Shown: positions 9,386-11,339 of the stretch, in pieces
How positions within the stretch are numbered: the first letter of the stretch is position 1
How the letters are laid out: each line of letters begins with the position of its first letter
Origin: Anaerolineae bacterium
Lineage (GTDB): Bacteria; Chloroflexota; Anaerolineae; Anaerolineales; UBA11858
Direction of reading: 5' to 3'
Assembly: GCA_014382605.1 (NCBI GenBank)
Contig: JACNJM010000253.1
Span: forward strand, 1,385 to 49,182
Length of the DNA stretch: 47,798 nt
Made by a program: the position numbers and the translations under genes
Notes under the pieces: generated by a model
The model's database searches: none
What the model was told of the DNA's origin: nothing
The model's input: the letters and a program-made list of their open reading frames with translations, nothing else

Positions 9386-9628
9386 ATGGACACAAATCAG
9401 CACCAAACCCAAATTCTCATCGAGCGTCTGGCGCGGCTTTCTGCCGATTCGCTGTGGGCGCGGCGCGCCAGCGGGGTGCGCGCCGCGCTGGATAAGGCCC
9501 TCAGCCGCCCAGAGATAAGTGACCCGCAATATCTGGAACGTCTCATCCAGGCTGGTTTTGAACTGCTCGAAAAAGCCGCGTGTGAATTGCCTTACGATAA
9601 CATTGACAAATCCGGCGGCATTGACTAG
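9386..9628 (+). CDS. Small hypothetical helical protein (80 aa)
   Basis: ATG at 9386; amphipathic LIERLARLSADSLWARRASGVR; fills the gap between the repeat and the next promoter. Confidence 0.6.
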   Translation: MDTNQHQTQILIERLARLSADSLWARRASGVRAALDKALSRPEISDPQYLERLIQAGFELLEKAACELPYDNIDKSGGID

Positions 9629-9631
9629 AAT
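9603..9631 (+). promoter_or_regulatory. Sigma70 promoter for the Met leader and cystathionine gamma-synthase
   Basis: TTGACA-17 nt-TAGAAT. Confidence 0.85.
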
Positions 9632-9641
9632 TCGCCCCAAT

Positions 9642-9749
9642 ATGTTTACTACCACCTTGATCTCCCTCGGCATTTTTGCCACAATGATGAGCGTGTTGAT
9701 GCCCCGCTCGCGGGCTTGGGTGGTCGCGTCTCGCAGACGCAGGCATTAG
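9642..9749 (+). CDS. Putative attenuator leader peptide MFTTTLISLGIFATMMSVLMPRSRAWVVASRRRRH (35 aa)
   Basis: Starts 10 nt after the -10 box; Met codons 15, 16 and 20; the coding region contains ttgggtggtc, complementary to the 5' arm of the terminator. Confidence 0.7.
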   Translation: MFTTTLISLGIFATMMSVLMPRSRAWVVASRRRRH

Positions 9750-9773
9750 AACGTACATATCTTTTGCACAATA

Positions 9774-9797
9774 GGCCGCCCAATCGGGCGGCTTTTT
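9774..9797 (+). terminator. Intrinsic terminator (attenuator) upstream of cystathionine gamma-synthase
   Basis: gccgccc-aatc-gggcggc-ttttt, 24 nt before the start codon. Confidence 0.85.
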
Positions 9798-9821
9798 GAT
9801 TCCCACAAGGAGAATGTTTGT

Positions 9822-11060
9822 ATGGCTTACCCTACCATATCTACCCAGGCACCCCCCATCGAACCCAAATCAAATGGTTTCGGCCCCTCTACCCAATCTG
9901 TGCATGGGGGGCGGAGCGCCAACCCCTATAACGCGGTAACCGAACCCATCATACAGACAGCCACCTACACCTTCGCGGATACTGCCGCTGTGTGTGCCTA
10001 TAAAGACGCCTATCTCATGGGCGATGCTGGCGGTGTGATCGAATATGGACGTTATGGCAACCCTACCGTATCCGCGGCTGAGGCGCGCCTGGCGGCTCTC
10101 GAAAGCGCTGACGATGCCCTGCTCTATGCTTCGGGCATGGCGGCGATTACCAGCGTGGTGCTGTCGATGTTGCCGACCGGCTCGCATATTGTCCTCACCG
10201 ACGACTGTTATCGTCGCACGCGTGAATTTGCGCTGACGTTTCTCAAACGCCTGGGGATTGGTTGCACGATTGTGCCGATGGGTGATTATCAGGCTCTCGA
10301 AGATGCCATCTGCCCGGAGACACGCCTGCTGATCTCCGAGTCGCCAACCAACCCCTATTTGCGGGTGCTGGATATGGAACGTTTTGTGGAAGTCGCTCGC
10401 CGTCGTAAAGTCAGGACAATGGTGGATGCCACCTTTGCCACGCCGGTCAATATCCAGCCCCTGGCGTGGGGCGTGGACCTGGTGGTGCATTCTGCCTCTA
10501 AATATCTTGCCGGGCATAATGATTTGCTCGCCGGGGTGGTGGCTGGAGAGGCAGGGCTGATTGCCTCGCTGCGCGGTCCGCTGGGCGTGTTGGGTGGAAT
10601 TATTGATCCCAACAACGCCAATTTGGTACTGCGCGGCGTCAAAACCCTGGCCTTGCGTGTCGAGCAGCAAAACCAGAGCGGGATGAAGGTTGCCCAATTC
10701 TTGGAAGCGCATCCCAAAATCGAGCAGGTTTGGTATCCGGGGCTATCCTCTCACCCCGATCACAGAGTCGCCATCCAACAGATGAAAGGTTTCGGAGGGG
10801 TGGTATCCTTTACCGTGCGCGGCGGTTTGGAAGCAACCTCCCGCTTCATTGACAATCTGCAACTCTCGCAGATTGCGACCTCATTGGGCGGCACGGAATC
10901 GCTCGTCATTCAACCGGCACTGATGACCTATTATGAGTTCTCACCGGAAGAGCGCGCTGGAATGGGCATCCGAGATAATCTGGTGCGTCTGGCGCTCGGC
11001 ATTGAGGATGCACAAGACCTGATCACTGATTTGGCTCAGGCCTTGGCAATGGCGCCGTGA
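9822..11060 (+). CDS. metB: Cystathionine gamma-synthase (PLP trans-sulfuration family), plant CGS-like
   Basis: EYGRYGNPT, YASGMAA, TDDCYRRTR, ESPTNP, DATFATP, HSASKYLAGHND (PLP lysine), SLGGTESL; RBS aaggag. Confidence 0.75.
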   Translation: MAYPTISTQAPPIEPKSNGFGPSTQSVHGGRSANPYNAVTEPIIQTATYTFADTAAVCAYKDAYLMGDAGGVIEYGRYGNPTVSAAEARLAALESADDALLYASGMAAITSVVLSMLPTGSHIVLTDDCYRRTREFALTFLKRLGIGCTIVPMGDYQALEDAICPETRLLISESPTNPYLRVLDMERFVEVARRRKVRTMVDATFATPVNIQPLAWGVDLVVHSASKYLAGHNDLLAGVVAGEAGLIASLRGPLGVLGGIIDPNNANLVLRGVKTLALRVEQQNQSGMKVAQFLEAHPKIEQVWYPGLSSHPDHRVAIQQMKGFGGVVSFTVRGGLEATSRFIDNLQLSQIATSLGGTESLVIQPALMTYYEFSPEERAGMGIRDNLVRLALGIEDAQDLITDLAQALAMAP

Positions 11061-11095
11061 TTTTTAGACCTTTACGCAATTTTTACACTTAGCGG

Positions 11096-11124
11096 TTGAC
11101 AGTTCTTGTGCCCTTGGGTACAAT
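11096..11124 (+). promoter_or_regulatory. Sigma70 promoter for the ilv-leu operon
   Basis: TTGACA-17 nt-TACAAT. Confidence 0.85.
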
Positions 11125-11167
11125 CCCGCCCAATATTGAGACAGCCGGAACGCCCGGCAAAAAAATT

Positions 11168-11281
11168 ATGCCAAATTTATTTGTTTTGTTTATCTTTATC
11201 CTGATTAGCCTTTTGGTTCTTATCCTTGGGATTACGAACCCCGTTTCCGTTTGGGCAGTTAGGAAAGTGACGAGCAGATAA
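11168..11281 (+). CDS. ilv-leu attenuator leader peptide MPNLFVLFIFILISLLVLILGITNPVSVWAVRKVTSR (37 aa)
   Basis: Codons 4-22 contain 7 Leu, 5 Ile, 2 Val and 3 Phe; the internal tgggcagtt can pair with the terminator 5' arm. Confidence 0.85.
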   Translation: MPNLFVLFIFILISLLVLILGITNPVSVWAVRKVTSR

Positions 11282-11309
11282 CAGCAAAACACATTCCAAG
11301 AGTTAGAGC

Positions 11310-11339
11310 AAAGGGCTGCCCACACGGGCAGCCCTTTTT
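11310..11339 (+). terminator. Intrinsic terminator (attenuator) upstream of ilvD
   Basis: aaagggctgccc-acac-gggcagccc-ttttt. Confidence 0.9.

Follow-up and report, generated by a model that had tools for sequence, protein, structure and literature searches.

Two adjacent leader regions in a stretch of 47,798 nucleotides (nt) from an Anaerolineae bacterium of the order Anaerolineales (contig JACNJM010000253.1, positions 1,385 to 49,182 of the forward strand; hereafter the window) are very probably classical ribosome-mediated (leader-peptide) transcription attenuators, the first one (leader 1) sensing methionine ahead of a gene for a pyridoxal phosphate (PLP) enzyme of Cys/Met metabolism and the second one (leader 2) sensing leucine, isoleucine and valine ahead of ilvD. 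A methionine leader-peptide attenuator with a canonical terminator appears to be undescribed, and it is new in its specificity and its lineage and shows an alternation of riboswitch and leader upstream of the same gene. The anatomy of the leaders was shown directly, as were their conservation, their potential for pairing, the downstream gene identities and this alternation. In the enterobacterial attenuators a short open reading frame (ORF) containing cognate codons is followed by strands that form the mutually exclusive pairings 1:2, 2:3 and 3:4, the last of which is an intrinsic terminator. The mechanism of leader-peptide attenuation is described in the accessible parts of PMC1183508 and PMC9413887. 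Both leaders of the window hold a short ORF rich in cognate codons, an intrinsic terminator and, past the sensing codons, a strand that competes with the terminator.

The features of leader 1 and the gene that follows it are listed below in window coordinates.

9603-9631, + strand: promoter, TTGACA (9603-9608), 17 nt, TAGAAT (9626-9631), 11 of 12 consensus matches in the promoter scan
9633-9643, + strand: GC-rich discriminator and predicted start region CGCCCCAATAT, a CGCCC(C)AATAT motif whose last bases are the beginning of the ATG
9642-9749, + strand: Met leader ORF MFTTTLISLGIFATMMSVLMPRSRAWVVASRRRRH, 35 codons, stop at 9747-9749
9650-9658, + strand: candidate region 1 UACCACCUU, codons 3-6, able to pair with region 2
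9697-9705, + strand: alternative region 1 UGAUGCCCC, which spans the last Met codon and CCCC and is the same in six of six Met leaders of this type
9717-9725, + strand: region 2, the antiterminator strand TGGGTGGTC (RNA UGGGUGGUC), codons 26-28, with Trp as codon 26
9726-9740, + strand: small local hairpin GCGUCU-CGC-AGACGC, adjoining region 2 on its 3' side, five of its six pairs kept in all five sequences
9773-9794, + strand: intrinsic terminator (regions 3 and 4) AGGCCGCCC-AATC-GGGCGGCTT, a 9-bp GC-rich hairpin with a T-run at 9793-9797, 23 nt past the stop
9822-11060, + strand: gene of the Cys/Met-metabolism PLP enzyme (cystathionine gamma-synthase / methionine gamma-lyase family), 412 amino acids, starting 24 nt past the terminator

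The promoter of leader 1 is kept in the related genomes G011, G012, G010 and G023. Since the ATG at 9642 lies only 10 nt past the -10 hexamer, with no room for a Shine-Dalgarno sequence, the mRNA is predicted to be leaderless or nearly so, with a start near 9638 and a 5' untranslated region (UTR) of at most about 4 nt. The internal Met codons are codons 15, 16 and 20 (9684-9689 and 9699-9701). Region 2, invariant in five of five sequences, pairs with 9774-9781 in a 2:3 duplex of about -17 kcal/mol here and of -14 to -19 kcal/mol across the sequences, and the terminator has an energy of -17.7 kcal/mol here and of -16 to -20 kcal/mol across the sequences. Upstream, an ORF of 86 amino acids (9368-9628, + strand) with no NCBIfam match has its stop codon inside the -10 hexamer of leader 1.

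Met leaders of the leader 1 type were found in three genomes of the genus, one genome of another genus and one further public record. Among the relatives, the sensing core (codons 14-20) reads MMMSMLM, MMMSMMM or MMMCMMM in four genomes, with five to six internal Met codons, and MMMCMLM in the further example, a public Anaerolineales record. The N-terminal codons are variable and the part from the sensing core to the stop is nearly invariant in five sequences. A broad contig scan with the 19-base core of the Met leader returned 50 stretches, mostly chance matches in GC-rich genomes; three of them are Met leaders in Anaerolineales or Anaerolineae records (L035, L040 and L068), and in a fourth Anaerolineales record, L049, no short ORF was found by the script.

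The strongest evidence for a methionine-related function comes from the orthologous gene in other families. Among the 151 genomes of the order, the 30 best loci of the PLP-enzyme gene were taken as the orthologous set. Eight of these 30 loci carry a Met-rich short ORF (at least three internal Met codons) followed by a terminator, with cores such as AMFMMMDMM, RMMMSVMMM, MPMMMDMM and MAMMMAMVM; they span the families f1, f5, f7, f9, f11 and f15, and two of them have tandem leaders. Another 21 carry the Rfam S-adenosylmethionine (SAM) riboswitch SAM-I (RF00162), scoring 68.9-90.8 bits against a gathering score of 44.4, and only one locus has neither element, with no locus having both. Thus, the Met-codon leader occupies the exact place that the SAM riboswitch holds elsewhere in the order, and the presence of one or the other upstream of the orthologues indicates that the gene is under methionine-pathway control throughout the order. 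Together with the MMMSMMM and MMMCMMM cores of the relatives, this strongly backs the Met specificity that had been proposed for leader 1 from its sequence. In eight of the 11 Met-rich ORFs listed, a strand complementary to the 5' arm of the terminator begins 6-10 codons past the last Met codon.

Leader 2 follows the PLP-enzyme gene and precedes the ilv genes, as listed below.

11096-11124, + strand: promoter, TTGACA (11096-11101), 17 nt, TACAAT (11119-11124), 11 of 12 matches, conserved in relatives
11127-11136, + strand: discriminator and predicted start region CGCCCAATAT, with ATT where leader 1 has ATG; start predicted at about 11132
11144-11158, + strand: small 5' UTR hairpin GCCGG-N5-CCGGC, variable in sequence among relatives, then an A-rich stretch before the leader ATG
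11168-11281, + strand: leader ORF MPNLFVLFIFILISLLVLILGITNPVSVWAVRKVTSR, ATG at 11168, 37 codons, stop at 11279-11281
11200-11211, + strand: region 1 CCUGAUUAGCCU, codons 11-15, inside the Leu/Ile/Val codon run
11252-11263, + strand: region 2, the antiterminator strand UGGGCAGUUAGG, including TGGGCAGTT at 11252-11260, with Trp as codon 29
11310-11337, + strand: intrinsic terminator (regions 3 and 4) AAAGGGCTGCCC-ACAC-GGGCAGCCCTTT, a 12-bp hairpin with a T-run at 11335-11339, 28-31 nt past the stop
11354-13021, + strand: ilvD
13113-14795, + strand: ilvB
14888-15421, + strand: ilvN
15459-16472, + strand: ilvC

The 5' UTR of leader 2 is predicted to measure about 35 nt. Leu, Ile or Val is encoded at 19 of the 37 codons, the sensing run spans codons 4-22, and the LISLLVL core of the peptide is conserved across genera. 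ilvD and ilvB score above the curated NCBIfam cut-offs; ilvN and ilvC were named from a reading of their ORFs rather than from a scan of the family library. The initial annotation of the window had listed a set of elements shared by the two leaders, and all of them were recovered: the promoters TTGACA-17-TA(G/C)AAT, the CGCCC(C)AATAT motif at both predicted starts, ORFs of 35 and 37 codons with their sensing codons, a strand written over a Trp codon, a basic C-terminal tail and a terminator of the form GGCYGCCC-N4-GGGCRGC-T5. Two contigs starting at 11138 and 11144, i.e., 6-12 nt past the predicted 11132, read through the ilv terminator into ilvD, and a short one covers 9760-9869; all of them come from a single study, the first two from "metatranscriptomic" runs rated "probably DNA", and they were not counted as evidence.

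The pairings expected for an attenuator were assessed in an alignment of 16 ilv leaders, with the partner strand slid along the sequence as control. Helix 1:2 (CCUGAUUAGCCU with UGGGCAGUCAGG) is paired in 94.9% of cells and in 21-49% when slid, helix 2:3 (region 2 with the 5' arm of the terminator) in 99.2%, and helix 3:4 (the terminator) in 96.6%, with two pairs altered on both sides. Over the three helices, which are mutually exclusive, the slid controls gave 8-69% pairing. The placement of region 1 within the Leu/Ile/Val codons matches the classical model exactly. In the ilv leader of G010 the 3' part of the ORF runs in another frame and the RNA motif UGGGUAGUC is retained; therefore, it is the RNA and not the Trp codon that is conserved. 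For leader 1 two candidates for the protector helix 1:2 are available, one of them genus-specific and the other weak. The duplex of codons 3-6 with region 2 has -11 to -17 kcal/mol in four genomes of the genus and is absent in G023 and L035, in which UGAUGCCCC, the sole partner conserved in all six leaders, is the best one.

The ilv leader is widespread. Homologues were detected by DNA search in 15 of 41 relatives, and a covariance model built from the alignment matches 71 of the 151 genomes of the order, distributed over 15 of 18 families and 42 of 71 genera (E <= 0.01). At 23 of 27 new loci a scripted search found a Leu/Ile/Val-rich short ORF plus a terminator, with none at the other four, and 12 of those 23 loci have an ilvD-like N-terminus downstream. 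Tandem arrangements are common, with two or three full leader-plus-terminator units before ilvD (L010 in G021, L093 in G116, L096 in G077, L102 in G103 and L098 in G135; copies also in G091), and in G021 every unit carries promoter-like sequence.

Based on these data the following course can be proposed, in which we infer ribosome stalling, transcription start and regulatory outcome for both leaders. A strong sigma-70-type promoter would give a short transcript encoding the leader peptide. At low levels of the cognate charged tRNA, the ribosome would stall, in leader 1 at the AUG codons 15, 16 and 20 (14-20 in relatives) and in leader 2 within the Leu, Ile and Val codons 4-22, thereby masking or separating region 1. 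The freed region 2 (UGGGYRGUY) would then pair with the 5' arm of the terminator and the polymerase would continue into the PLP-enzyme gene or into ilvD-ilvB-ilvN-ilvC. Under good supply the ribosome would reach the stop codon, region 2 would be covered or would re-pair with region 1, and the GC-rich hairpin with its U-run would form, leading to termination.

Several points weigh against this interpretation. In both leaders a ribosome at the stop would leave region 2 uncovered, its distance upstream being 21 nt in leader 1 and 15 nt in leader 2, so that termination would have to rely on re-pairing or on timing. Leader 1 of this genome holds just three internal Met codons (ATMMSVLM) and would be a weaker sensor than the leaders of its relatives. 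Its protector pairing is uncertain, since the codon 3-6 partner is confined to the genus and would already have been passed by a ribosome stalling on the Met codons, and the universally conserved partner UGAUGCCCC gives just -10 to -12 kcal/mol. The rule on the position of the antiterminator strand fails in three of the 11 Met-rich ORFs: at L134 the best complementary strand is at codons 4-6, ahead of the Met run, and at L131 and L132 the ORF is weakly Met-rich or was called too long by the script. No double compensatory change was seen in helices 1:2 and 2:3 of the 16 ilv leaders, whose sequences are frozen, and hence the support for these two helices consists of conserved pairing and not of covariation. 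The best NCBIfam score of the PLP enzyme, 370 bits, is below every curated equivalog cut-off, and the enzyme is assigned here at the level of its family. Finally, transcription start, termination and the response to starvation are predictions from sequence.

Two explanations that dispense with the sensing codons were weighed against attenuation. Leader ORF 2, and perhaps ORF 1, might encode a real small hydrophobic membrane peptide, the hairpins being ordinary terminators and the codon content incidental. In this sense, the leader 2 peptide resembles a single transmembrane helix, its LISLLVL core is conserved at the amino-acid level across many genera, and the C-terminal PRSRAWVVASRRRRH of the leader 1 peptide is conserved as well. 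Nevertheless, synonymous positions are also conserved exactly at helices 1:2 and 2:3, G010 retains the RNA motif in spite of the change of frame, the ilv element always stands directly upstream of ilv genes, often in tandem, the N-terminal half of the leader 1 peptide varies freely and SAM riboswitches fill the position of leader 1 in other families, all of which makes a functional peptide extremely improbable. A control of leader 1 by a protein acting in trans, or by an RNA fold that binds a small molecule, with the Met codons being irrelevant, is likewise highly improbable. The near invariance of the five sequences from codon 14 to the stop goes beyond what the pairings need and the leader 1 RNA folds more stably than its shuffles (z = -2.7), both in favour of such control; however, leader 1 matches no Rfam family (the best, Phe_leader, gives 20.5 bits against a gathering score of 55), and Met runs recur before the orthologous gene in six families with otherwise unrelated leader sequences and also before metG, a recurrence that a common ligand-binding fold would not predict. 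Attenuation by a leader peptide is thus the preferred reading for both leaders.

The two leaders are not isolated cases. The genome was scanned for promoters followed by a short ORF and a terminator, and the genes downstream were identified with NCBIfam. Four further leaders were found.

Contig C6, about 230 nt upstream of hisG (L026), - strand: His leader MNTTILICKHHHHHHASTGNSARAGLL, with six consecutive His codons
Contig C309, upstream of argG (L027, L161), - strand: Arg-codon leader MFTHISNPRRPRRKKLSSLWEGRALLLG, with a GCCCUCC terminator
Contig C273 (L029), + strand: Phe/Tyr-rich leader MNHKTIRFFAFYFYYGNTPTVAVGGA, a terminator, then genes for an aroH-type chorismate mutase and two 3-deoxy-D-arabino-heptulosonate 7-phosphate (DAHP) synthases
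Contig C278, upstream of metG (L030), + strand: second Met leader MKTRTYFPHMQVAMPMMRVMMCRASKQAAVQVENLC, with the terminator GGGCUGCC-ACCAUC-GGCAGCC before the gene of methionine--tRNA ligase

The His leader is preceded by the promoter TTTACG-17-TAAAAT-CCCGCCCAAT-ATG, giving a leaderless-looking start, and ends in the terminator GCGCCCUCC-ACUC-GGAGGGUGC-U6, with no match to the Rfam His_leader family. The TAnAnT-CCCGCCCAAT-ATG context of leader 1 is also found before this leader and before Arg leaders of relatives. A terminator of the GCCCUCC type is present at 21 of 24 argG loci of relatives, all but one with a short ORF bearing an RxRRxR-like cluster, and no description of an arginine leader-peptide attenuator was found in the literature searched. 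A similar Met leader stands before metG in G014 (L128). The metG leader is the only one of these further leaders with a GCUGCC stem, and none of these other leader loci of the genome matches an Rfam leader family. The additional leaders that the initial annotation expected before biosynthetic and tRNA-synthetase genes thus exist as far as function is concerned. Both leaders of the window belong to an attenuator toolkit that extends over the whole order, in agreement with the claim that leader-peptide attenuation is a lineage-wide trait.

Weaker candidates were also seen. In the genome these are MCRFVVLSNNKVKQSRKPLNSLAFGLLRLQN plus a terminator about 370 nt before lysX (contig C6, - strand, L026) and the Ala-rich MHRIDNSLITLNSKAAALSAAISVGIVAGVPASEPHTLV plus a hairpin before alaS (contig C333, - strand, L028), the latter gene named from its N-terminal sequence only; in other genomes, the Thr-rich leaders MKSVHFATTMTMNTSGPRREAFVHGMK (L094, - strand, G092) and MKDLRFGTTITTTSGIRREVFVHRP (L110, + strand, G037) and their terminators precede aspartokinase-like N-termini, these genes being named by eye. 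Contig C122 (+ strand, about 5624-5700) shows a different arrangement: a consensus promoter, about 20 nt, the hairpin GCCGCC-CAAUCUU-GGCGGC-U6 and then a gene start, with no room for a leader ORF.

The initial annotation had further proposed that both leaders share one homologous chassis re-coded for different amino acids. The compensatory differences in all three strands on which this was based are present, GGGUGGUC / GGCCGCCC / GGGCGGC in leader 1 against GGGCAGUU / GGCUGCCC / GGGCAGC in leader 2. In the genome of 3.66 Mb the full composite pattern, the terminator pattern and the pattern of promoter plus start each match these two places only; the strict pattern search thus gave no third member and it was the generic scan that retrieved the leaders of hisG, argG, aroH and metG. 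When the terminator-like hairpins whose arms measure at least 8 nt were compared, the terminators of the two leaders proved to be the closest pair among 470 strong hairpins. Specifically, among the 469 other hairpins the Met terminator is the sole one with seven of eight identities to the loop-proximal ilv stem, five having six of eight, and each of the arm words CTGCCC and CCGCCC is present in one of the 470. In this respect the resemblance exceeds that of arbitrary terminators of the genome.

Outside the terminator the similarity fades. The covariance model of the 16 ilv leaders scores the ilv leader itself at 164.9 bits and has the Met leader as its best non-self match in the genome, full length, at 29.7 bits (E 0.0036), followed by the opposite strand of the ilv terminator at 25.1 bits and by the metG leader at 22.4 bits (E 0.15). 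With nhmmer, positions 81-170 of the full ilv profile align to the 3' half of the Met leader at 19.7 bits (E 7.8e-4). The opposite strand of the ilv terminator alone reaches 18.0 bits in this search, close to the Met leader, indicating that nearly all the signal is the hairpin. In line with this, the Met leader was not found by the ilv profile without its terminator columns, inspecting matches up to E 10, nor by the profile restricted to region 2 and the spacer. Region 2 is not an independent character, since in any attenuator it must resemble the 3' arm of the terminator. As for the promoters, the two leader promoters are the only matches of 11 of 12 between positions 9000 and 17000 of the window, where promoter-like sites number 7 against 7.2 expected from shuffles, and their hexamers are plain consensus. 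Of 178 promoter-like sites, 16 have GCCC starting 2-5 nt past the -10 hexamer where 4.05 would be expected, and several of the 16 precede tRNA genes; the GC-rich element after the -10 box is therefore generic in this genome. CGCCC.?AATAT alone was discarded as a signature, as it gave 57 matches, mostly intragenic.

Accordingly, of the proposed re-coded chassis the close relationship of the terminators stands, whereas no similarity was found outside them and the promoter motif is generic: the resemblance is beyond chance for the terminator and not for the remainder. The likeness of the leaders can mostly be ascribed to a design that both have in common and to terminators that are very similar, and they may be of common descent. 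That they are homologous copies of one cassette, arising for instance by a neighbouring duplication of the widespread ilv leader, with the sensing codons swapped and the pairing strands co-evolved, is regarded here as rather unlikely. In its favour, besides the rank of the Met leader in both comparisons and of the metG leader as the next leader, the order Met leader, PLP-enzyme gene, ilv leader and ilvD is common to families f1 and f5; GCUGCCC and GCCGCCC stems both occur among the ilv leaders of the order, G028 has a Met leader with an ilv-type stem, and most Met leaders of other families have GCUGCC/GGCAGC stems. Apart from the dominance of the hairpin in the scores, this view is opposed by the fact that neither the reading frame, which changes in G010, nor the Trp codon, which the majority of Met leaders in other families lack at this place, is conserved, by the Met leaders of G028, G116, G075, G034, G154 and G106, none of which is reported by the ilv model at E <= 0.01, and by the loci L116 and L125 of other genomes, in which a hairpin of this kind is an ordinary two-way terminator with no leader ORF.

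A wider version of this idea, which we would sooner doubt than accept, is that new amino-acid sensors arise in Anaerolineales when a few cassettes are copied and re-coded, one with the GCYGCC terminator (ilv, the Met enzyme gene and metG) and one with the GCCCUCC terminator (his, arg and possibly lys), both transcribed from the TAnAnT-CCCGCCCAAT-ATG leaderless-start promoter context, the Met leader being an ilv leader that was re-coded and took the place of an ancestral SAM riboswitch. If true, this would document that ribosome-sensing switches can evolve in a modular, cut-and-paste manner, and attenuation would be extended to Met and Arg, amino acids thought to lack it.

Both leaders share with the enterobacterial attenuators (trpL, hisL, leuL, thrL, pheL, ilvL/ivbL) the clustered cognate codons, the mutually exclusive pairings and the terminator before the first gene, and differ from them in the phylum (Chloroflexota), in the Met specificity and in the predicted leaderless start of leader 1. 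None of the Rfam families Leu_leader, His_leader, Thr_leader, Trp_leader and Phe_leader reached its threshold in the window, Phe_leader giving 22.7 and 20.5 bits against 55. The Rfam scan of the window returned tRNAs only, with no RF00162 or T-box match, and L131 gave neither of these either; three consecutive tRNA genes are located at 30452-30781 (- strand). SAM-I, which fills the position of leader 1 upstream of 21 of the 30 orthologues and also ends in a terminator, can be considered the functional counterpart of the Met leader because of this shared position. It senses SAM by means of an RNA aptamer, whereas leader 1, with no aptamer, would read charged Met-tRNA via the ribosome.

Leaderless leader peptides, as predicted here for leader 1, have been described in Streptomyces lividans TK24, where the accessible text of PMC8079986 lists leuL, trpL, alaL, ilvL, metL and thrL. 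Among these, ilvL precedes ilvBHC, alaL precedes alaS, and metL, which was proposed to respond to methionine, precedes the importer genes metNIQ, with two internal Met codons and no clear intrinsic terminator in that text (PMC8079986). The two systems thus have in common leaderless leader peptides, predicted in the present case, before biosynthetic and tRNA-synthetase genes. As far as the S. lividans description goes, leader 1 differs from metL in its canonical terminator and antiterminator, the 3+3 Met runs of its relatives and the biosynthetic gene downstream, and no sequence relationship is apparent between them. The polycysteine ORFs of mycobacteria are sulfur amino-acid sensors too, responding in the portion of the report at hand to cysteine, unlike leader 1 with its methionine. 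They reportedly do not rely on a canonical intrinsic terminator. In the accessible part of that report they are leaderless short ORFs that attenuate operon expression according to supply (bioRxiv 10.1101/834739). With regard to leader 2, Leu/Ile/Val leader peptides with several hairpins are known from the Corynebacterium glutamicum ilvBNC attenuator and from actinobacterial ilvB leaders, as far as described in the accessible sections of PMC11857589 and PMC1262725, respectively. Judged by these sections, leader 2 is distinct in having ilvD as the first gene, 37 codons (much longer) and the LISLLVL core, with no sequence similarity. According to the available text of Naville and Gautheret (2010; PMC2965389), the Firmicutes cases that they reported were the first leader-peptide systems known outside Proteobacteria and Actinobacteria. 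In the literature searched, no attenuator was found described for Chloroflexi or Anaerolineae, nor a Met-codon attenuator with a canonical terminator, although the supplementary lists of PMC2965389 and PMC4833913 could hold cases.

Documented cases of attenuation come mainly from Proteobacteria, Actinobacteria and a few Firmicutes, and methionine is not known to be among the amino acids concerned. Well-studied bacteria regulate their methionine genes by SAM riboswitches, T-boxes or repressors. An order in which either a SAM riboswitch or a Met-codon leader stands before the same gene constitutes a natural experiment on sensing SAM versus sensing charged Met-tRNA. As the leaders are compact and defined by their sequence, they are directly testable in reporter systems. 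None of them is in Rfam, and for this reason annotation at present either overlooks them or wrongly calls them hypothetical small proteins. Altogether, the leaders for Leu/Ile/Val, His, Arg, the aromatic amino acids and metG indicate that Chloroflexota appear to use attenuation far more broadly than annotated.

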